35,431 nt of DNA from a virus. Taxonomy: Duplodnaviria > Heunggongvirae > Uroviricota > Caudoviricetes. The translations under genes were made by a program, and so were the position numbers. The stretch lies in the IMG/VR virus record IMGVR_UViG_3300018065_000012. One strand, given 5' to 3'. Positions 2,525 to 12,722 of the stretch are shown here, piece after piece. Each line of letters starts with the position of its first letter. The first letter of the stretch is position 1. Under the pieces are notes generated by a model. It searched no databases. It was not told the origin of the DNA and saw only the letters and a program-made list of their open reading frames with translations.

Positions 2525-5500
2525 ATGCCTATCGCTGGAATCAAAGTCTTCTTTGTCGGCAAATCGTGGAACCTATCTTACGACATCAAGACCTCTAAGC
2601 ATATCGCAAATTTGATGTCTGATATTGCACAGTTCAAGCCTGATGTCATTGTCACATCCGAGTTTACTCCCGGTGCCTTAAATGTTGCTGATTTTGAAAT
2701 ACGGAAGCGGTGGATTGAAGTTCCTCCCAATTCAGATAATGCTTCTGTTGGAAGAGCAATCGAATCCTGCTATGCGTCGAACATTTGGGGAGAGCATAAA
2801 TTTAGCAAGCAGAATCCACTTGTTACGGTCTACACGGGAACATATAACACAGGTGACTTCCTACGGGACACTTTTCAATCATTACGGGAACAATCCTATA
2901 CGAATTGGGAATGGTCTGTTGTTGATGATGAAAGCACAGATGGCACTTGGGAACGGCTTATTGAAATAGCCAAAGAAGACCATCGAGTACATCCAGTAAG
3001 AATCAAGCATAGTGGCAAGATTGGAGCGGTGAAAGACGTTGCGACTCGTCTTGCAAATGGCGTCTATCTGATTGAACTTGACCATGATGATATGCTGACT
3101 GACAATTGTATTCAGGAAGTCAGGAAGGCATTTGAAGAAAACCCCGATGTTGGTTTTGTTTATTCCAATTGTGCGTCGTTCTTTCAGGATGGTTCGCCGC
3201 ATCAGTTCACAGATAATTTTTGGAAGCCGAGATACAGGGAAACAGAATACCGTGGAAAGAAGTATTTGGAGTGTAGGAATCCTGACATCTATGACCGCTT
3301 TGGAGAAAACTATCAACAGCAATTTGGCTGGTTCTTAACCGTGGGGCCGAACCATGTGAGGTCTTATCGAGCAAGTGTTTTGAAGGAGTTGGGCGGCTAC
3401 AATCAACACTTACCTGTAGCGGATGATTGGGATGTATATGCGAGATTCTTTTTGAATTCCAAATGCCTTCATCTTGACAAGATGCTTTATCTGTATCGCT
3501 TTTTGGATAGTTGGTCAAATACGACATTCACTCGCAACAAGTCGATTCAAGACCATTTGGCTTTGGGGCATCATAACTATCGGAAAGCGTTTATCGACTT
3601 CAACAACAAACGTTTACAATCTGAGGAACAGTCTGGTAATGAAACAGATTTCGTTACCAAAAAACGAGGTGTTTCCGCTGTGATTCTTGACTGGAATACA
3701 ATGGGAGAAACGTTGCTTTGTGTTGAATCCCTGAAAGCTTGCTATCCCGATGTTGAAGTTGTACTGGTTCAGAATGGCAAGCACTTTGATTGTCCGAAAG
3801 CTGACAAGGTGATTCAACTCGAAATGAATGTTGGTTTCTCGGCTGGTGTGAATCGTGGTGTAATGGAAACGAGTGGAGAATTGTTACTGCTTTTGAATAA
3901 TGATACTGTGGTTGAGAAAGGCTTGCTTGAGAAGCTTGAGAAAGAACTGGATAATCCTGATGTTGGTGTAGTTGGCCCTTACTCGAACGAAGCGAAGTAT
4001 CCACAAGGAAATTACGAATCTCATGCTGTTCCAAGTTTAACACAAGATTTGGATACGCTTTCTGGTTTCTGCATGTTAATGAGGAAAGACTTGTTTGAGT
4101 GTGTTGGTGGATTTGACCCACGCTTGACGACGTTTGAAGATGACGATTTTTGCCTTAAGGTGCGGCAACAGTTTAGGTTGAAATGCCGTGTGGTTGGTGG
4201 TACTTGGCTACATCATAGTGGGCATAGTTCATTTAAGACGAATGACCTTGACGTATTTGAAGTGATGAAAGAGAACAAGCAGAAGTACCGTGAAAAACGT
4301 CCTCATGTTCGAGTAATTGCTTTGACATATAATGAGAAGAGAGCGTTACCGGAATTCATTAACCAGTTGAGCAGCATTACAAATGACTTCTGCTTTCTTG
4401 ACAACGGCTCTACGGATGGAACAGTTGAATGGCTGAAGGAAAACGGAAGGAAAGTAGTAGTTCGAGAAGACGCAATTGAATCATATAGTCAACGACGAAA
4501 TATGGCGCTTGATATATTCCGTGACGATGCTGCTGAATGGATTGTGATGATTGACCCCGACGAACGTTTGGACAGCAACACAATCAATCATTTTGAGGAA
4601 TTGCTTCAGGCTCCGTATGACATCTATCTCTCTCCGTTGTGGTCAAAGAATTACGACAATACCCAAACAGAATGGGTAGCAAAGCCGTTCCTGTTCCGAA
4701 ACAAACCTGAGATACGTTGGGTGTTTCCTGTCCACGAGAAGCTGATTGGTTCTCATTCTCAGGCGTTAGTAGTCAACGCTCGGAATACGCACGTCTTGGA
4801 ATTACATTCGAAAGAGCGGCGTCAAGAGAATGCGAAAAAGTATGGCGACAAAGACGCACCATTGAATCATCCAGACGCACATGGTTTTCCCATTCTGAAT
4901 TACGAACATAGGGATGATGACAGAATCAAGAAGGTGTATTTGGGGCCACTCGTTTCGGTTGTAGTTCCGACGTATGACAGGAAGGAACTGCTTGCCAAGG
5001 CATTAGCATCTATTGAAAAACAGGATTATTTGGCAATTGATCCGGTAGTAGTTGGTGATAATTGTCCAACGCTTGAACCTTCTGAACGCCAATATAATTT
5101 GCCGATAAATCATGGCGCTGGCGGGGCTGTTCCAAGGAATTACGCAATCATGTTGGCGGCTGGTGATTGGATAGCTTACTTGGATGACGATAATGAATGG
5201 GAACCATACCATTTGTCGAGTCTGATGAGAATAGTTCAAGAAGCCAATGTTGGTTTTGCATTCTCGTCGATGTCGGTGAATGGTAAAGCGATGATTTTTG
5301 CAGAGCCGAAGTTTGGGAGGATTGATACATCATGTGTAGTACATCGAAAAAGCCTGATACGGGATTTCGGTTGGTGGAATGATAGAATCAAAGCTGGTTA
5401 CGCACATGATTGGGAATTTTTCAGTCGATGGGTTGTTGGTAAAGTTCCTTGGGCAGCGACAATGTTTCCTACAGTGATTTACAATGCAGAGACTTCAGGA

Positions 5501-6525: not shown

Positions 6526-7415
6526 AAATTGGAGTGATGTTTTCAGGAGTTACAGGAAACAACGGTGCTGATTACGTTGCTGAATTTCTTGGCAATGCTG
6601 TGTTGCTTGAAGGGCATGAACTGACTTATATCGGTTCAATGGGTGGCGAACAAACGCAAGACGTTCCTTCTGGGCTGGATGTCGTGATCAATTCTTCCGG
6701 ATTTGGTTTGACTCCTGCGCTTGTTGAACGGTTTAAGAAACGATGCAAATTCTTTCTTTGGACGTTCAATGATGAAATTCATTTCTGGCAAAGTCGGATA
6801 GGTTCAATCACAGAATTGGTTGATAAGCATTTCTGTTATACAAAAACGCATTCCTATGGTCATCACGTTGAATATCTCCCGCTTGCAGCAGATCATTCAA
6901 TTTATTTTCCGATTGAAGGCTGTAAGAAACGTTATGACATTTCCATGATTGGGGCAGCACATCCTTGGAGAACTCAATTTGCTCAAGAGATTAGTCGTTT
7001 CTTTCCAAACTGTAAATTCAGTTTCAATATGAGTATGACTGACCGGCAAATAAATCTGCTTTACAATATGACGCGTGTAGTGATTGCGCCGATGCAAGAT
7101 GGCGATCAATACAACGAACAAGTAGTATTTGGATGTCCTTGTCGCACGTTTGATGTTCCTGCTGCAAGAGCGTTTCAATTACAAGCATACCGATCTGGTT
7201 TGCATGATGTTCACGACAGCGAAGAAATCATTGTGGGGACAACATTAAAGAGCACAAAGGATATTTTTGAAGTCATTTCAGAATGGATTGACAAAATTCG
7301 ATATTACTTAGATGAAGAAAAAACGCGGAAGAACTTGGCCGAAAGGATGTATGGCGAGATTACGCATAAACACCTCTATACCCATAGATTAAGTAGTATT
7401 TTGGAATTTGTGTGA
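6522..7415 (+). CDS. Putative GT-B-fold glycosyltransferase (CgeB-like or glycosyl transferase group 1-like).
   Basis: ATGA overlap with the rSAM gene. The C-terminal half resembles GT1/CgeB family (ISMIGAAHPWR...NLLYNMTRVVIAPMQ). No definitive motif is present. Confidence 0.45.
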   Translation: MKIGVMFSGVTGNNGADYVAEFLGNAVLLEGHELTYIGSMGGEQTQDVPSGLDVVINSSGFGLTPALVERFKKRCKFFLWTFNDEIHFWQSRIGSITELVDKHFCYTKTHSYGHHVEYLPLAADHSIYFPIEGCKKRYDISMIGAAHPWRTQFAQEISRFFPNCKFSFNMSMTDRQINLLYNMTRVVIAPMQDGDQYNEQVVFGCPCRTFDVPAARAFQLQAYRSGLHDVHDSEEIIVGTTLKSTKDIFEVISEWIDKIRYYLDEEKTRKNLAERMYGEITHKHLYTHRLSSILEFV

Positions 7416-7466
7416 GAATCATATTTTGATTTTTTTGAAATATTTTTGGAATTTTCCGTTCGCGAG

Positions 7467-7475
7467 TTGTATAAT
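7467..7475 (+). promoter_or_regulatory. Extended -10 promoter TTGTATAAT driving the tmRNA precursor.
   Basis: It is 20 nt upstream of the mature tmRNA 5' end GGGGGCG, consistent with a short 5' leader removed by RNase P. Confidence 0.5.
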
Positions 7476-7494
7476 ATATCGTTCTTTGGAAAAT

Positions 7495-7849
7495 GGGGGC
7501 GTCATGGTATCGACTGGCGCTGATTGTAGCACGGTTGCGTGCCGAGGTCGCCGGTTGGCCTCGTTAAAAAACCGGCAACGCCATTCACTTGGCAACAGCT
7601 ACAAAATGGCGGCGTGAGTCGCTCGTCAACTTGATCGACGCCGATGGGTCAATGTTTGACGTAAATGCTTTCGGTTGACAGCTGGCAAAGACCGCTGACG
7701 ACTCGCGGAAAGACGTGGGCCGCGTAAAGGGGTGGAATTGCCTTTTGAGGCTTGTCCAGTGGGCCAAGAATAAAAACCACGGAATACGCACGTAGAAGCC
7801 TGTTACAAAAGTGAACAGGACGCGGGTTCGATTCCCGCCGCCTCCACTA
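7495..7849 (+). ncRNA. ssrA: tmRNA (SsrA) with a tRNA-Ala-like domain and an internal tag reading frame.
   Basis: The 5' GGGGGCG pairs with the 3' CGCCUCC, giving a G3.U70 wobble, followed by discriminator A. The T-arm is GCGGG-UUCGAUU-CCCGC. The D-analogue GGUAUCGAC and the PK1 region GCGUGCCGAGG...GGUUGGCCUCGUUAAAAA align closely to E. coli SsrA. The tag ORF at 7591..7617 is GGC AAC AGC TAC AAA ATG GCG GCG TGA, giving (A)GNSYKMAA. Confidence 0.88.
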
Positions 7850-7886
7850 TTAAAAAGTTTCGGGGCAAGCTCAGTGCTTGTCCAAA

Positions 7887-7929
7887 GGAAGGGGAGCTTT
7901 CGGCCCCAAACTCCCCTTCCGGTTCTTTG
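7887..7929 (+). terminator. Rho-independent terminator downstream of the tmRNA.
   Basis: A perfect 10-bp inverted repeat GGAAGGGGAG...CTCCCCTTCC with a 14-nt loop, followed by GGTTCTTTG. Confidence 0.6.
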
Positions 7930-8199
7930 ACAAAAATTTCATGCACGCTTCAAGGCAGGGATACTTCAATAGCGATATATAAATTGGAGTGGAGAAATCC
8001 TGACAGCACCGGAAAGACGGGCAAAGGTGGTGACTTCCTTAAAGTCAATGGCAACCGTGAAAAGAGGCGGTGACAGGCGTGGATAGACACGCACGGTAGC
8101 TTACATAATAAAATGTAAATGCCGTAAAACAGACAAAATTTCCTTGCTTGACTTTTGGTGCATAAATTTTTGTCTTACGTCTATTGGGAGGACGGCAAT

Positions 8200-8406
8200 A
8201 TGTACAAGATTGAACTATTGCGATCCAAGAGCAAAAGAAAGAATGAAAATTTCTATTGGCGCTTGATTTCAAGAGCGAATGGAAATATTCTTTCGACTGC
8301 GGAACCTTATGCGCGTCGTCCTTGGACAGTGATCAAGAATCTTGCCGGTGCCTTCAAAAGAGGCAAATGCATTATTGTTGACCTGTCCCAAAAGAAGAAG
8401 AAATAA
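8200..8406 (+). CDS. DUF1508 / YegP-like small protein.
   Basis: A GGGAGG RBS precedes the ATG. The sequence FYWRLISRANGNILSTAEPYARRPWTVIKNLAGAF matches the YegP/DUF1508 repeat pattern (FRLKA.NGEII..SEGY). Confidence 0.6.
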   Translation: MYKIELLRSKSKRKNENFYWRLISRANGNILSTAEPYARRPWTVIKNLAGAFKRGKCIIVDLSQKKKK

Positions 8407-8783
8407 GGTTTCCCTTGTTGGCCGAGGGCCGATGGTTCCTCATCGTCCTCTCCTCACTCTACGGGTGGAGCTGTTTGCATTTGGTTGGCAAGGGAAAAGT
8501 TTTCTAACCGGCATTATCAGTATCATGGCGCTGCCGGTTATATTTGTTCTTTGAAAAAATTCCAACACGCTTCAGTTGAGAGATACTTCTACTATCGGTT
8601 CTAAGGTAGCTTAGGTCAAACCCTGTTTCGGCAGGGAGACACAGTGAGGACAAAACTGGTAACAGTGAGTCCGCGTCAAAGGCAAAGCTTATGAAACTCA
8701 TACGCGTCGTGGCGGTGGGTGAGGCTTGTACTGGCAACCACACACGAAAATACTTTCAACGTTTTTTGGTGTTGGTGCTTTTT

Positions 8784-8848
8784 CCGGGTGTGCTTTGGGT
8801 ATCCCAAACTTGATCTCCGCGAACAAGTGCCTACGCACCCGGTTTTTT
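8784..8848 (+). terminator. Stem-loop plus U-tract (CCGGGTGTG...CGCACCCGG TTTTTT), possibly the 3' end of an ncRNA or an attenuator.
   Basis: A 9-bp stem with one G.U pair and a ~41-nt loop, followed by six T residues, lying immediately before the RBS of the 8866 gene. Confidence 0.4.
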
Positions 8849-8865
8849 AATGGTAAGGAGACATT

Positions 8866-9639
8866 ATGAAAAATGTGATTGAGAAATTTGCGCGAATGGG
8901 TGCACGGCTCAAAATCAACCAAACAGATCGTCCCGTACGCTTTCGCGCCAACAACGAGTTCCGCATTGACGTTTTGCGCGATAAGAATGGCGAATTTTTC
9001 GACATTCAAACGCAAGACATCGACATGAAAGTGCTTGATGTACAATCCGCAGATCGCCATTTGCTTTTGCGCGTTGGCGATGAAAACTTTCTCTGTGGTC
9101 ACGATGAACGTCAATGGTTTGTCGCTGGCGTGAAAACAAATGCGCCCACAGTCAAGAGAGCAAAGGAAGCGCTGAAACCACTTGGAGTGCGCTCTTCCGA
9201 ACGCAAGAATCGCGTCAAAGGAAAAAACAGAATCAAGCGGCATAACAAAGGTTCTATCCGACAAGGAGAATGGTTCTTTGTCCCTGAGCCAGATGCCAGA
9301 TTTAATGCGAATTTGATTCTCAGAAAAGAACCTTTGATGCGTGGCAACCGTGGCGGTGGAAAACCCCATATTGCGGAGGAACTTGTTCGCATGGGTGGAA
9401 CGACAGTTTATGTTAATCCCCGCCATCGCAACGGTCTGATGGAAAAGGAATACAAAAAACTTTTGGCAGAAACGCCTTCTGCGAAAAGGTGGCGCTGGCA
9501 AGTGATGAAGCGCGACCCAAGGGTTTACGTTCGCGGTAAAATTCGCCATCCCGATCACAAGACAGTAAAGCTTCAAGGATGGTATCGGGTTGAAGTCAAT
9601 GACGAAATTTTCAGCGAGCGAGTAGCTTTTCTTGATTAA
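8866..9639 (+). CDS. Hypothetical basic protein (257 aa).
   Basis: A strong AAGGAGA RBS precedes a long clean ORF. I recognise no motif. Confidence 0.6.
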   Translation: MKNVIEKFARMGARLKINQTDRPVRFRANNEFRIDVLRDKNGEFFDIQTQDIDMKVLDVQSADRHLLLRVGDENFLCGHDERQWFVAGVKTNAPTVKRAKEALKPLGVRSSERKNRVKGKNRIKRHNKGSIRQGEWFFVPEPDARFNANLILRKEPLMRGNRGGGKPHIAEELVRMGGTTVYVNPRHRNGLMEKEYKKLLAETPSAKRWRWQVMKRDPRVYVRGKIRHPDHKTVKLQGWYRVEVNDEIFSERVAFLD

Positions 9640-9643
9640 GTTC

Positions 9644-9671
9644 TTGAATTTTGTTCTTTGAGTTGTATAAT
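9644..9671 (+). promoter_or_regulatory. Sigma70-like promoter: TTGAAT, 16-nt spacer, TGTATAAT.
   Basis: The -35 TTGAAT is at 9644..9649 and TTGTATAAT at 9663..9671. It lies in an intergenic gap 47 nt before the ATG at 9718. Confidence 0.55.
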
Positions 9672-9717
9672 AATAGAGAAGTGTGTGCTTTGTCCTCTGC
9701 TAACTTTGGAGGAAATT

Positions 9718-10764
9718 ATGAGCCATTTTACTGTTCTGGTTCGGTTTTCCGATGCGTTCAAAAATTCTCATGGTGGCGTCCAGCAAGCTATAAACGAAAT
9801 GCTTGCGCCCTATCAAGAAAACAATATGGAAGACTGTCCAAAGGAGTTTCTTGAATTTAATGATGTTGAAAAGGAGTATCGGAAAAAGTACAAGGAAGAA
9901 TCACAGGAATTAGTCCGAATGCCAGATGGTAAATTGATTTCAAAATATAACGACCGATTCAAAAAGCTCAAAGATGGAAGCAAGTATTCATATGATCGCA
10001 TTATTCCTGATGATTGCGAGTTAGTTAACGTGCCTCACAACCAACATTACGCGACGTTTGAAAAATTCATGGAAGATTACGGTGATTATGAAAAAGACGA
10101 AAGTACGGGGAAATACGGCTATTGGGAAAATCCAAATGCCAAATGGGACTGGTTTCAAATTGGTGGCCGTTGGCAAGGTTGTTTGCACGTTAAGAAAGGG
10201 GCGCGAAGCGCAAAGAACGGCGAACCAAGTCTTTTAATGAAGGACCATAAATTTGAAGACGACAAAGTGGATGCTGCTCAAAAATGCGACATCGACTTTG
10301 AAGGTTGGAAAGCTGATACAGACAAACAACTTGAGGAATGGTGGAAGAAATATCAACAACTTTTGAAAGGGACGTTAAAAGAAGACGACAACCCTTTTTA
10401 CGGGATGCATTACGACCTTTGCCAAATGGGGTTGAGAGAAACGCCTGCGGTCAACGACAAAGAAATTGAAGCCGCAAGAAAAAAGTCCCCAAAGGATCGT
10501 TCAAAATGGCCTGAAGCAGTTTGGATGACAAAAGAGATTACAAAAGCCGAACTTGAAATAAACTACCGCTGGCGGTTTGAGTTCAACACTTATGCCGCCT
10601 GTACTGAAAAAGAGGGATGGCTTGAAAAAGGAAAAATGGGCTGGTTTGGTTGTAGCACTGATAAAAGCGAAGACAGGGAGAAATGGGGCAAAAGCTTTTT
10701 CAACCGTTTCTTCTTGAACGCACCGGAGGATGAATGGTTTGCAGTCGTTGACTGCCACATTTGA
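9718..10764 (+). CDS. Hypothetical acidic, Trp-rich protein (348 aa).
   Basis: A GGAGG RBS precedes the ATG and a promoter lies directly upstream. The YGYWENPNAKWDWFQIGGRWQG segment is distinctive but unrecognised. Confidence 0.6.
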   Translation: MSHFTVLVRFSDAFKNSHGGVQQAINEMLAPYQENNMEDCPKEFLEFNDVEKEYRKKYKEESQELVRMPDGKLISKYNDRFKKLKDGSKYSYDRIIPDDCELVNVPHNQHYATFEKFMEDYGDYEKDESTGKYGYWENPNAKWDWFQIGGRWQGCLHVKKGARSAKNGEPSLLMKDHKFEDDKVDAAQKCDIDFEGWKADTDKQLEEWWKKYQQLLKGTLKEDDNPFYGMHYDLCQMGLRETPAVNDKEIEAARKKSPKDRSKWPEAVWMTKEITKAELEINYRWRFEFNTYAACTEKEGWLEKGKMGWFGCSTDKSEDREKWGKSFFNRFFLNAPEDEWFAVVDCHI

Positions 10765-10828
10765 CCTTTCTTAAATTTTGGTTCCGCTTTGTGTGAGAGC
10801 GGTTCGCTTCTGTAGAAAGGAGAGTATT

Positions 10829-12658
10829 ATGGGTAGAATGAAAAAGTTGGCGAAGAACAAGGCGAAGACGGCACGGCTTCCGTCGGAACAGACAAACGCA
10901 ACGGTAAACCGCGCAGGCGGTGTTTCGTTTGATATTACCGTTCCGGCTATCAAGCTGATGACCATGACGGGTGGAAGCTTTTTCATGGAACCGCGTTATT
11001 ACGATGCGGACAAGTGCGTGCCAAAGCGCGAAGCTGGCGGAAAGCTTGGCAAGCTTCAAGAGCGTTTGAAACTGGCAAAGAACAAGTCGTTGGAAGGCAG
11101 TAAGGCGTTGAAAGAATCCAACGTCAATGAGTTGGATGAATTGTCCCGTGAGGTCATGGCAACTGCTTGGGATGTTCTGAACAGCGATAATCCGAGCGAC
11201 TTGCTGAAGATTGCCCACTGGCTGCGGCGTGAAATGAACATCAGAATGACGCCGCAAGTGCTGTTGGTGCTTGCGTCACAACATCCAAACGGAAAGCCTT
11301 TTGTACGCGAGTACACGCCGAAGATAATTGCGCGTCCGGATGAGATCAAGACGGTCATCCTGATGCACAGGTTTTTCTTTGGCATGAAGAACTTGAAGAA
11401 CTGCTTGCGTTACGGTCTGTCTGATGCTATGGCAAAGATGGGCGAGCGCGGCCTGATCAAGTATGAAGGCAAGGATTTTCCAAGCTGGAAGGACGTCCTT
11501 TTCATGGTTGCTCACGCGAAGGATTATCCGCTGAGCAAGCCAGTTGCGGAATACTTCATGTTTGGCAAGGTCAGTGATGAAGCTCCGATTGCTTCCGCAA
11601 GAAAGCAGTTGGCTGGTTGCAAGAAGCTTGGCACAAAGGCGAAGAATCTGATTTCTACGTCTTTTGCAAACTGGGAAGTCGTTTTGTCTCAGTTTGGTCA
11701 GACTGCGGAAAGCAAGAAGGAAGTTTGGGAATATCTTATCAAGGAAAATTTGGTCGGCTACATGGCCATGATGAGAAACCTGCGGAACGTCCTTCAGGCA
11801 GGAGTTGGCGGCGATACGGTCAAGCGTATCCACGACAAGCTGTCTGATCCAGAGCAGGTAAAGCGTTCCAGACAACTTCCTTTCCGTTTTGCGATGGCCG
11901 CAAAGGTGCTTGGTGCTGACTATGGTATCACTGATCGTTGGTACTATGATCGGGACGTAAGCAATCAAAAGTTTGAGTGCAATGAAAAGCACCGCAGTAT
12001 TATTCAGGATGCTTTGGAAAACGCTGCGGACGAAGCGGTGATCAATGTGCCTGAACTTCCGGGCGTGACTGCTGTGTTTGCAGATAACAGCGGTTCAATG
12101 TCGCAGATGGTCAGCGAAAAGAGCAAGGTGTCGTGCGCTTTGGCTGCAAATATGCTTGGTGGTATCGTGGCGAAGCGTTCAGCAAATGCTCGCGTCTGTG
12201 CCTTTGGTACGGATGTAAAAGAAGTCAACTACACGAAGCGGACGCGTGTGCTGGAGTTTGTCGGTAAGCTTGCAAAGGCCGAAACAAATGGCTGCTCCAC
12301 TAACACGCATCGTTGCGCTCAGTGGTTGATGAAGAACGGCATTGCCGCTGACCGTGTGATCATCCTCAGCGACATGCAGTGCTGGGATTCCCGTTCGGCA
12401 GGTAGCAGACGGGGGTTGTGGGGTTATAGTGATCAAAGTTTTGCTGATGAATGGTTCAAGTACAAGAAGTCAAACAAGGACACTTGGCTTCACTGCGTCA
12501 ACTTGAATGGATATGGAGATAGCATGGTTGACGACAAGTCCGACAAAGTGAACCTTGTTGGCGCGTTCAGCGAAAAGATTATCAGCATGCTTCTGGTCAC
12601 TGAAGGCGTAATGACGGACGCAGTTCCAACTCTTGAACAACTTAGAGAGAAGTGGTAA
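10829..12658 (+). CDS. rsr: Ro60/Rsr-like ribonucleoprotein with a TROVE domain and a C-terminal vWA domain.
   Basis: The N-terminal TNATVNRAGGVSFDI...TGGSFFMEPRYY follows the Ro60 TROVE pattern (compare human NSQDGYVWQV...FGSEGGTYYI). The C-terminal vWA has a MIDAS motif VFADNSGSMS with downstream T/D residues (GCSTN, ILSDMQ). An AGGAGAG RBS is present. Confidence 0.62.
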   Translation: MGRMKKLAKNKAKTARLPSEQTNATVNRAGGVSFDITVPAIKLMTMTGGSFFMEPRYYDADKCVPKREAGGKLGKLQERLKLAKNKSLEGSKALKESNVNELDELSREVMATAWDVLNSDNPSDLLKIAHWLRREMNIRMTPQVLLVLASQHPNGKPFVREYTPKIIARPDEIKTVILMHRFFFGMKNLKNCLRYGLSDAMAKMGERGLIKYEGKDFPSWKDVLFMVAHAKDYPLSKPVAEYFMFGKVSDEAPIASARKQLAGCKKLGTKAKNLISTSFANWEVVLSQFGQTAESKKEVWEYLIKENLVGYMAMMRNLRNVLQAGVGGDTVKRIHDKLSDPEQVKRSRQLPFRFAMAAKVLGADYGITDRWYYDRDVSNQKFECNEKHRSIIQDALENAADEAVINVPELPGVTAVFADNSGSMSQMVSEKSKVSCALAANMLGGIVAKRSANARVCAFGTDVKEVNYTKRTRVLEFVGKLAKAETNGCSTNTHRCAQWLMKNGIAADRVIILSDMQCWDSRSAGSRRGLWGYSDQSFADEWFKYKKSNKDTWLHCVNLNGYGDSMVDDKSDKVNLVGAFSEKIISMLLVTEGVMTDAVPTLEQLREKW

Positions 12659-12687
12659 ACAAAATTGTAAATCTCTTTCTGGTTTTT

Positions 12688-12722
12688 GCCCCTGTTGCCG
12701 GTGGTAGCAGGGGTATTTTCTT
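12688..12722 (+). terminator. Rho-independent terminator after rsr.
   Basis: GCCCCTG, a 13-nt loop, CAGGGGT, then ATTTTCTTT. Confidence 0.6.

Follow-up and report, generated by a model that had tools for sequence, protein, structure and literature searches.

Y RNAs are the partners of Ro60, and it is their second domain that decides to what Ro60 becomes tethered. To our knowledge, the sole second domain described in bacterial Y RNAs is a tRNA mimic. Here we describe winB, a putative Y RNA-like non-coding RNA (ncRNA) gene at positions 8562-8775 (+ strand) of a 35,431-nt Caudoviricetes sequence, IMG/VR record IMGVR_UViG_3300018065_000012, the whole of which is referred to below as the window. 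We estimate at about 0.7 the probability that winB is a Y/YrlA-like, Ro60-associated ncRNA of a large virus-restricted family, with a paralogue, winA, in a second gap of the same window.

The YrlA RNAs (RF02553) are Y RNA-like RNAs of bacteria and phages that are encoded beside rsr/Ro60 (Chen et al. 2014, PMC4201824). A motif near the YrlA 5′ end, GNCGAA(N)G, has been proposed to contact Rsr, and a YUAY motif has also been described (PMC4201824); Ro60 binds the terminal stem of Y RNA, mainly its 5′ strand (as cited in PMC4201824). In the Rfam consensus of YrlA, a 6-bp closing stem leads through an internal loop (5 nt facing 8 nt) into a 7-bp stem and CUA; a T arm comes next, then a closed stem and a D arm, before the strands return. 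In the Thermus phage phiLo, two Y-like RNAs, Yrl1 and Yrl2, are bound by the phiLo Ro60 (PMC12135203; PDB 9L5Y).

Region 8407-8865 of the window lies between a 68-aa open reading frame (ORF; 8200-8406) and a 257-aa ORF (8866-9639), and the + strand is the strand of every gene in the window. An earlier note on this DNA had taken the region for a non-coding, hairpin-rich gap and, in view of the nearby Ro60 gene, had suggested that it encodes a Y RNA-like ncRNA. Its description of the gap was borne out. No credible ORF is present, the longest being of 79 aa (8504-8743, minus strand) and 70 aa (8342-8554, +), and the ORFs of the gap have no Pfam match at E ≤ 0.1. The hairpin strings that it had quoted, CCCTGTTTCGGCAGGG and CTAAGGTAGCTTAG, lie at 8621-8636 and 8601-8614, and the 9-bp stem 8784-8792/8834-8842 with T6 at 8843-8848 exists as claimed. 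Folding exceeds that of shuffled sequence in every span scored (z = -4.15 for 8405-8553, -2.2 for 8555-8850, -2.76 for 8780-8856 and -3.4 for 7931-8135). CAGTGAG does occur twice, although the duplication carries no evidential weight alone. The structured ncRNA is also there, but it fills just 8562-8775 of the 459-nt region, the remainder being separate hairpins: the gap consists of a hairpin at 8409-8497 with a terminator-like hairpin, the winB RNA gene, and a three-way hairpin with U6. The parts of winB are as follows.

8562-8775, +: winB, putative Y RNA-like ncRNA gene of the H69-type subclass, about 214 nt between the outer base pairs
8562-8589, +: 5′ basal module, made up of S1, loop strand, S2 and AUACUUC
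8562-8568, +: S1, CCAACAC, pairing with 8769-8775
8569-8574, +: internal-loop strand GCUUCA
8575-8582, +: S2, GUUGAGAG, pairing with 8753-8760
8583-8589, +: AUACUUC
8590-8614, +: rRNA-like segment UACUAUCGGUUCUAAGGUAGCUUAG
8736-8739, +: 3′ strand of S3, AACC, pairing with GGUU at 8597-8600 in a helix-69-like stem
8753-8775, +: 3′ basal module, scoring 15.7 bits with a position weight matrix (PWM) against 10.7 for the best background
8753-8760, +: S2′, CUUUCAAC
8761-8768, +: 3′ internal-loop strand GUUUUUUG
8769-8775, +: S1′, GUGUUGG
8776-8785, +: U-rich tail UGCUUUUUCC, directly after S1′

The real terminal stem of winB is formed by 8562-8589 paired with 8753-8775. S1 contributes 7 bp and S2 all eight of its eight pairs, and both helices are recovered by an unconstrained fold of the winB span. 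A U run stands straight after S1′ in most family members, winB and winA among them, and the U-rich tail of winB may represent its 3′ end or a terminator.

The lead to the family was a weak blastn match in a viral contig (L025; loci are given such numbers throughout), approximately 600 nt upstream of a 48%-identical Ro60 gene. This match arose from a blastn comparison of the gaps with loci found via the 257-aa protein, in which all matches were short. Three collections were scanned with the pattern CACGCTTCA-N5-GNGN-TACTTC. It was found in nine stretches of IMG/VR and in more than 115 stretches of the JGI metagenomes, many of the latter multi-copy and inside tRNA arrays. The bacterial and archaeal genomes (596 Gb) gave 14 pattern matches, 13 of them without the rest of the structure, and the single verified cellular copy is on a 3.2-kb scaffold in the bin of a metagenome-assembled genome. 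Almost all of the 71 distinct verified copies are on metagenomic or viral contigs. Given one verified copy in 596 Gb of cellular sequence vs more than 115 metagenomic stretches, the family is essentially confined to viral or metagenomic DNA, and in that sense essentially virus-restricted. Its commonest protein neighbours are homing-endonuclease-like ORFs (HNH and others), as in the tRNA arrays of L096, L100, L126, L129 and L142. Further IMG/VR scans, for GGTTCTAAGGTAGCT and for TACTTC-N3-10-GGYYCTAAGGTA, returned almost solely chance matches in coding DNA, the exceptions being L030/L031 and a variant family (L269, L276 and L281).

Members share a basal module comprising a closing stem, the loop GCUUCA, an 8-bp stem and (A/U)UACUUC on the 5′ side, and the returning strand of the 8-bp stem, GNYUWUYG and a closing strand beginning with GUG on the 3′ side. 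The internal loop is asymmetric, with GCUUCA opposite the 8-nt GNYUWUYG. The family was defined by CACGCUUCA-N8-NUACUUC ... N8-GNYUWUYG-GUG, with the 3′ motif at the position fixed by S1/S2 pairing and a 3′ loop of 8 nt. An 8-nt complement to the variable S2 strand sits 19-190 nt downstream of each 5′ motif, followed by the 8-nt loop and then by GUG plus bases complementary to those preceding the 5′ motif. Of the 105 motif instances, 71 proved to have a 3′ partner that leaves a loop of exactly 8 nt, compared with 54 of 2100 controls in which the downstream sequence had been shuffled. The 3′ loop is conserved as GNYUWUYG though it was outside the search key.

In a fixed-length alignment of the 71 distinct copies, standard pairs occupy 95.8% of the S1 and S2 cells. 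Changes on both sides are seen in nine of the 14 pairs (200 cells), which none of 500 shuffles reached, and pairing drops to 39-56% when the partner is slid by one to three columns. Covariation across homologues, which the earlier note had named as a check on its proposal, is evident in these copies, and the frequent G-U pairs identify + as the RNA strand. The same data bear on the suggestion that the gap encodes a small protein, for which the 79-aa and 70-aa ORFs would be the candidates. Neither has a relative in Pfam, conservation tracks base pairing (G-U pairs included) and not codons, and the apical length ranges from 19 to 190 nt between members; we consider a protein here practically out of the question. 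What the constant basal module carries is variable: a short loop, a tRNA-like domain of T arm, closed acceptor stem and D arm, or an rRNA-like domain. Among 73 classified siblings, 42 have a T arm, and in 16 of these it is accompanied by a D arm.

Within the window, the exact 5′ motif occurs twice, at 7944 and 8566, against 0.04 expected. A PWM of the 3′ loop and GUG derived from the 69 other members scores 16.7 bits at 8150 and 15.7 bits at 8761, while the next best of approximately 70,800 window positions attains 10.7 bits. Since these top two positions lie exactly where pairing with the 5′ motifs at 7944 and 8566 requires, we conclude that winA and winB are both members. The PWM test replaced a covariance model of the basal module, which ranks the two 5′ halves of the window first (E = 0.011 and 0.047) and misaligns the 3′ side, as it cannot bridge the 170-nt apical insert.

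7941-8163, +: winA, gene of a putative Y RNA-like paralogue of winB; basal module shared, apical domain different
7941-7946 and 8158-8163, +: winA S1, AUGCAC/GUGCAU, 6 bp
7953-7960 and 8142-8149, +: winA S2, AGGCAGGG/CCUUGCUU, 8/8 pairs

The paralogue occupies the second non-coding gap (7930-8199) to which the earlier note had drawn attention, and an unconstrained fold of its span again recovers S1 and S2. The two gaps had been linked through the 9-mer GGTAGCTTA. This is indeed present in both (8095-8103 and 8605-8613) but means little by itself; the link rests instead on a 36-nt direct repeat (7932-7967 and 8554-8589, 75% identical) and on the matching 3′ motif. An orthologue of winA is found in L126 (approximately 3640-3350, minus strand), the closest related locus, and has in common with winA the 44-nt block GAUGGCRACCGURAAAAGARRCGGUGACAGGYGUGGAUAGACAC. 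The winA apical domain does not resemble tRNA, and comparison of winA, the hairpin at 8409-8497 (hairpin X) and the terminator region with E. coli 16S and 23S rRNA gave no convincing similarity.

The presumed protein partner is encoded downstream of both RNAs:

10778-12658, +: Ro60/TROVE gene (TROVE, E = 3.9e-24; vWA_Ro60, E = 3.1e-9)

On a matching contig, the JGI call places the Ro60 start at approximately 10829 rather than 10778. The end of winB is 2.0 kb and that of winA 2.6 kb upstream of the TROVE ORF, all on the + strand. Starting from the RNAs, Ro60 genes adjoin copies in L112 (60% identical), L029, L025, L147 and L174; Ro60 is the most recurrent neighbour of the family after the homing-endonuclease-like ORFs. 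Starting from Ro60, 39 viral loci found with an alignment of the clade contain 11 of the RNAs, spread over nine loci; every one of them is on the Ro60 strand, and the opposite strand has none. Most lie 100-900 nt upstream of Ro60, and the two copies of L224 lie approximately 1.7-2.1 kb upstream. In all nine loci the Ro60 belongs to a clade 44-51% identical to that of the window. When the search is anchored on the 3′ motif instead, most of the Ro60-adjacent copies are found again, and the 5′ motif appears in them unprompted. Furthermore, a 253-kb contig with arrays of the RNAs (L028, L034) encodes a Ro60 elsewhere (L216). Searches of isolated phages yielded no cultured relative of the window Ro60 (tblastn, identities of at most about 28%) and no megablast match to 7400-12700. 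This genomic association, together with the established binding of Ro60 to the terminal stem of Y RNAs, suggests that Ro60 docks on the basal module. The proposal of a Y-RNA-type ncRNA tied to Ro60 is supported in this respect, not by the argument first used for it but by the covarying family, its YrlA layout and its position upstream of Ro60 genes of one clade.

Few parts of the large ribosomal subunit are as conserved, or as central to its function, as the helix-69 region. In ten members of the family, winB among them, UACUUC is followed by (CUAUAA)CGGYYCUAAGGUAGC, and nine full-length members of this H69-type subclass were used for alignment and for comparison with E. coli 23S rRNA (L207). 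In winB, CGGUUCUAAGGUAGC (8596-8610) corresponds to the 3′ strand of helix 69 and the 5′ strand of helix 70. The identities with 23S rRNA are given below.

L160: 23S 1914-1934, 21/21
L164: 23S 1914-1934, 20/21
L186: 23S 1913-1933, 20/21
L030: 23S 1917-1934, 17/18
winB: 23S 1920-1934, 14/15

Near their 3′ ends, the same RNAs carry a GUAAACGUCAGCCGUAAC-like sequence equivalent to 23S 1897-1914. When the 3′ part of L164 is joined to its 5′ part, 38 identities extend across 23S 1893-1934, interrupted by a 9-nt insertion where the basal stem sits; in nine siblings the helix-69 halves stand in permuted order around the Y stem. The helix-69-like stem pairs CGGUY with RNCCG, a (G/A)NCC(G/A) strand preceding S2′ in the subclass. 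Across the subclass the S3 pairs are GC, GC, UG/CG/UA and UA/CG, and RNAalifold independently predicts S1, S2 and S3. The domain is thus a circularly permuted helix-68/69/70 junction whose break lies at the tip of the helix-69 loop. Compared with 23S rRNA, the helix-69 stem is retained with compensatory changes; the differences are that the halves are permuted and joined via the Y stem at the helix-69 loop tip, that the helix-70 loop is cut to a tetraloop and that the rest of domain IV is absent. Alignment of winB with 23S rRNA gives 19/22 identities with a 2-nt gap on one side and just the AACC/GGUU pairing on the other, the surroundings of AACC (8736-8739) being a degenerate form of 23S 1897-1914. 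It is CGGUUCUAAGGUAGC and the AACC/GGUU pairing that place winB in the subclass, its 5′-strand flank being degenerate.

The segment in which the earlier note had seen a likeness to the vertebrate Y RNA stem GGUCCGAAGGUAGU lies within this domain, the quoted string GGTTCTAAGGTAGC being located at 8597-8610. As RNA, GGUUCUAAGGUAGC is identical to 23S rRNA 1921-1934 at 13 of 14 positions, and 23S rRNA explains the resemblance better; the segment is apical and is not the Ro-binding 5′ stem. In the searchable literature, the coverage of which is incomplete, we came across neither the present family nor any Y RNA that mimics rRNA. A variant H69-type RNA (L269, approximately 10945-11230; L276; L281) has the same AUACUUC and a longer 23S match, AACUAUAACGGUCCUAAGGUA (21/21 by eye). 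Its basal loops differ, with UAGUAA opposite GAAAUUUCU, and the fetched flanks of the three loci contain no Ro60 gene.

The rRNA-like stretch could alternatively be under selection as DNA, the site CTATAACGGTYCTAAGGTAGC serving as a target, relic or trap for homing endonucleases. We take CTATAACGGTCCTAAGGTAGC to be the core of an I-CeuI-type recognition site, such enzymes targeting 23S rRNA genes; the 21/21 match of L160 covers a site of this type, and the abundance of homing-endonuclease-like ORFs around the family is in keeping with the idea. Nevertheless, the other half of helix 69 is more than 100 nt away and pairs with it in the RNA with covariation, for which a DNA site has no need. Moreover, the site is uninterrupted in all ten members, and the left part of the I-CeuI site (TAAC) is here the CUUC of the family. 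Selection at the DNA level seems to us highly unlikely.

Several observations weigh against the assignment of winB as a Y RNA-like, Ro60-associated ncRNA. The whole case is drawn from sequence comparison. The copies were gathered by an exact 5′ pattern and a pairing filter, and the 5′ invariance and the percentage paired are partly a product of that selection; this does not apply to the covariation, to the conservation of the 3′ loop, or to the slid and shuffled-partner controls. An Rfam scan, which the earlier note had also recommended, spoke against it: at the gathering threshold and at E ≤ 10 alike, the window matches tmRNA only, and neither Y_RNA nor YrlA nor anything else relevant was detected in 7850-8900, a span in which ARAGORN and the Rfam tRNA and tmRNA models likewise found no tRNA or tmRNA. 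The published Ro-site motif GNCGAA(N)G is absent. There is no clear sigma-70 promoter upstream of either RNA, winB being preceded by TATATT (8539-8544) with a poor -35 and winA by none. In the H69-type subclass, the helix-70-like hairpin CUAAG-GUAG-CUUAG shows no covariation, and winB is among the most degenerate members, the 5′-strand half of its helix 69 being barely recognisable. Lastly, most copies reside in tRNA arrays whose fetched flanks, a few kb long, contain no Ro60, and the Ro60 link is an enrichment rather than a strict rule. Since most of the other copies are on short contigs, however, the absence of Ro60 there says little.

This last distribution also bears on the possibility that the structured RNA works without Ro60, as a decoy or modulator mimicking the translation apparatus (tRNA, or 23S helix 69 as here). 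Such an RNA might absorb host nucleases, toxins or modification enzymes, or disturb ribosome assembly or function. Besides the many copies in phage tRNA arrays, the mimicry of tRNA or rRNA by the variable part and the existence of the variant H69-type RNA with another basal loop accord with a Ro60-free role. On the other hand, the constant part of the family is the basal stem, in the position and with the geometry of the Ro-binding stem of YrlA; the copies nearest Ro60 are often minimal, with little beyond the basal module; the strand bias of the Ro60-adjacent RNAs is absolute; and the contig with the largest arrays does encode a Ro60. We regard a decoy independent of Ro60 as unlikely.

If winB is a Ro60-associated Y/YrlA-like RNA, it would probably be made as a discrete transcript, and the phage Ro60, whose gene is 2 kb downstream, would dock on its basal module, as other Ro60 proteins do on the stem of Y RNA. 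The rRNA-like apical domain may have a role of its own, acting as an adaptor or decoy that offers an rRNA-like surface to a host factor recognising the helix-69 region; alternatively, it might gate the access of Ro60 to RNA. At somewhat less than even odds, we propose that the phage Ro60 is equipped with modular adaptor RNAs, in which a constant docking stem is fused to a swappable tRNA or 23S helix-68/69/70 look-alike, steering or shielding Ro60 and any recruited exonuclease with respect to factors or RNAs that recognise helix 69. Were this true, the rRNA-type adaptor would be the first Y RNA to mimic ribosomal RNA, and RluD, RlmH, ribosome-assembly or -splitting factors and the 30S subunit would be candidate targets. 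The permuted helix-69 domain offers testable predictions on the host contacts of phage Ro60 particles. The virus-restricted branch is of note for its different conserved docking loop, for its abundant copies, many of them in tRNA arrays of large (>100 kb) viral contigs, and for carrying at least three kinds of apical domain on one constant stem.

The rest of the gap would be accessory, with conserved and terminator-like hairpins upstream of winB and a terminator-like three-way hairpin downstream:

8409-8497, +: hairpin X, displaying CAUCGUCCUCUCCUCACUCUACGGG (8441-8465), z = -4.15
8505-8553, +: terminator-like hairpin UAACCGGCA/UGCCGGUUA (8505-8540), then the U-rich run AUUUGUUCUUUG
8784-8848, +: three-way hairpin 8784-8842 (closing stem 8784-8792/8834-8842) with U6 at 8843-8848, -25.2 kcal/mol, z = -2.76

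The loop of hairpin X is kept in L126 (approximately 3832-3740, minus strand), where the stem sequence and the position relative to genes are different, and an IMG/VR scan for the loop motif found no copy beyond those of the window and L126. This CU-rich loop, CAUCGUCCUC(UC)CUCACUCUACGGG, contains CCUCC, like the anti-Shine-Dalgarno sequence. Inverted repeats had raised the idea that hairpin X and the next hairpin are antisense to the tag region of the tmRNA; it was rejected, the duplex energies being no better than those of shuffled sequences in both the window and L126. The hairpin at 8505-8553, which overlaps the weak -10-like TATATT mentioned above and the motif GTTCTTTGA (8546-8554), may have terminator and promoter roles. 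The U6-ended three-way hairpin is separated by 17 nt from the start codon of the gene that follows.

A cis-acting leader or terminator that controls read-through to the 257-aa, 348/368-aa and Ro60 genes, with no separate RNA gene, would account for the terminator-like hairpins at 8505-8553 and 8784-8848. In L126 a comparable hairpin and T run precede the homologous gene, and no strong promoter is found between winB and the next gene. The same module nonetheless occurs dozens of times elsewhere, in tRNA arrays; several H69-type siblings have a TGTATAAT box of their own 8-14 nt upstream of S1; and the H69-type RNA of L126 lies upstream of the 68-aa gene and not directly before the 257-aa gene. 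The chance that the gap is a leader of this kind is, in our judgement, very slight, and a separate winB gene remains the preferred reading.

The word GTTCTTTGR occurs five times on the + strand (752, 7481, 7922, 8546 and 9653) and never on the minus strand, with 1.2 expected on both strands together. Four sites are intergenic, upstream of the tmRNA, winA, winB and a 368-aa ORF, and three end 5-8 nt upstream of the tmRNA, winA or winB. Words similar to it precede RNAs in L126 and L269. GTTCTTTGR may serve as a promoter element or in processing, or may mark where the transcripts start. Reading GTTCTTTG as a Bacteroidetes-type -7 promoter was rejected, as it does not fit the consensus TAnnTTTG.

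Two further genes flank the RNAs:

7495-7849, +: tmRNA, full-length (Rfam RF00023, 125 bits), just upstream of both Y-like RNAs
8866-9639, +: 257-aa protein gene, syntenic with Y-like RNAs

The tmRNA at 7495-7849 was missed by ARAGORN. Proximity of tmRNA to Y-like RNAs was also observed in L025, L030 and L126. In L025 (3793-4750), a tmRNA match is followed by a 168-aa ORF (4224-4730) and a second copy of the tmRNA 3′ terminus, CCCGCCGCCTCCACCA, an arrangement that looks like insertion of a mobile element at the end of the tmRNA gene. Two ribozyme matches lie in RNA-rich regions with Y-like RNAs: one to the type-P5 twister model (L030, 12687-12763; 38.0 bits vs a threshold of 37.6) and one, below threshold, to an HDV-like model (L129, 10175-10244; 36.8 bits vs 44). 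The 257-aa protein has 4149 homologues, many of them approximately 53% identical and encoded in Planctomycetota chromosomes, which hints at this phylum as the host. One homologue (L290, 4001-4807, another genome) adjoins a gene for an RNA 2′-phosphotransferase (PTS_2-RNA). No sequence match to the 257-aa or 368-aa protein was found in Pfam, NCBIfam, PHROG-function or PDB. The TTG start (9658) of the 368-aa ORF is inside the motif GTTCTTTGA, which is followed by a TTGTATAAT box (window 9640-9720); the JGI call on the matching contig starts this ORF near 9718 (348 aa).

We lastly compared the family with the known Y RNAs. With metazoan Y RNA (RF00019) it shares a presumed Ro60 partner and two ends that form a terminal stem with an internal loop or bulge, but the terminal stem of winB does not contain the GGUCCGA / UUGACC bulged helix and has no Rfam match. 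The phiLo system resembles the present locus in having phage-encoded Y-like RNAs upstream of a phage Ro60, two per locus, with a stem-bulge-stem form. The phiLo Ro60 is the only PDB relative of the window Ro60, and a distant one (E = 7e-7). However, the phiLo RNAs were picked by a CGAA motif (PMC12135203) that is absent from winB and winA, and no rRNA-like domain has been reported for them.

The likeness to YrlA is closer in geometry. In both, pairing of the two ends gives a long stem broken by an asymmetric internal loop (5-6 nt facing 8 nt). Like YrlA, winB and winA also have a Ro60 gene on their own strand less than 4 kb away. A YUAY-type motif follows the second stem, being UUAC in siblings and AUAC in winB and winA, and in most siblings the apical elements come in the YrlA order: T arm, closed acceptor-like stem, D arm. 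The YrlA model of Rfam aligns mid-size siblings at 21-45 bits, several over their full length (L142, 42.8 bits; L112, 40.5; L096, 39.5), all below the gathering score of 69. It stayed below threshold in all of the approximately 40 phage and metagenomic loci scanned, including those adjacent to Ro60; 13 more distant phage Ro60 loci, taken as a control, were uninformative, as they gave no match at threshold either. The family differs from YrlA in its conserved loop, which is CACGCUUCAG / GNYUWUYG-GUG where YrlA has GNCGAA(N)G: the equivalent position is occupied by CACGCUUCAG throughout the family, winB and winA included, with only the central CG in common. It differs further in being nearly absent from cellular genomes and often multi-copy within tRNA arrays, and neither winB (rRNA-like) nor winA (no match found) has a tRNA-like domain. 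An analogy may be drawn even here, in that the Y stem of YrlA replaces the anticodon stem of tRNA, whereas the basal stem of the H69-type RNAs is placed at the tip of the helix-69 loop.

A cellular counterpart exists in Fuerstiella marisgermanici, where a homologue of the 257-aa protein (L287, 8001-8810) is directly upstream of three tandem Y-like RNAs (8816-9212), which are followed by a 634-aa TROVE gene. The layout is that of the phage RNAs, including UUACUUC/AUACUUC, a second stem of 8-9 bp and the same flanking protein family. All three RNAs have a T arm, and two of the three also have a closed acceptor-like stem and a D arm. They differ in being cellular, in their loops (YGGUGCA opposite GRYGAUUUC) and in a Ro60 that is just 29% identical to that of the window. 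The Fuerstiella loop strand, GACGGUGCAG, agrees with the phage CACGCUUCAG at 7 of 10 positions and with GNCGAAG at 5 of 7 (by eye), and these RNAs represent a cellular intermediate. We therefore class the family to which winB belongs as a divergent branch of the Y/YrlA kind, outside RF02553, and GNCGAA(N)G in YrlA, GACGGUGCAG in the Planctomycete and CACGCUUCAG in the phages provide a natural series of docking loops for Ro60-RNA recognition.

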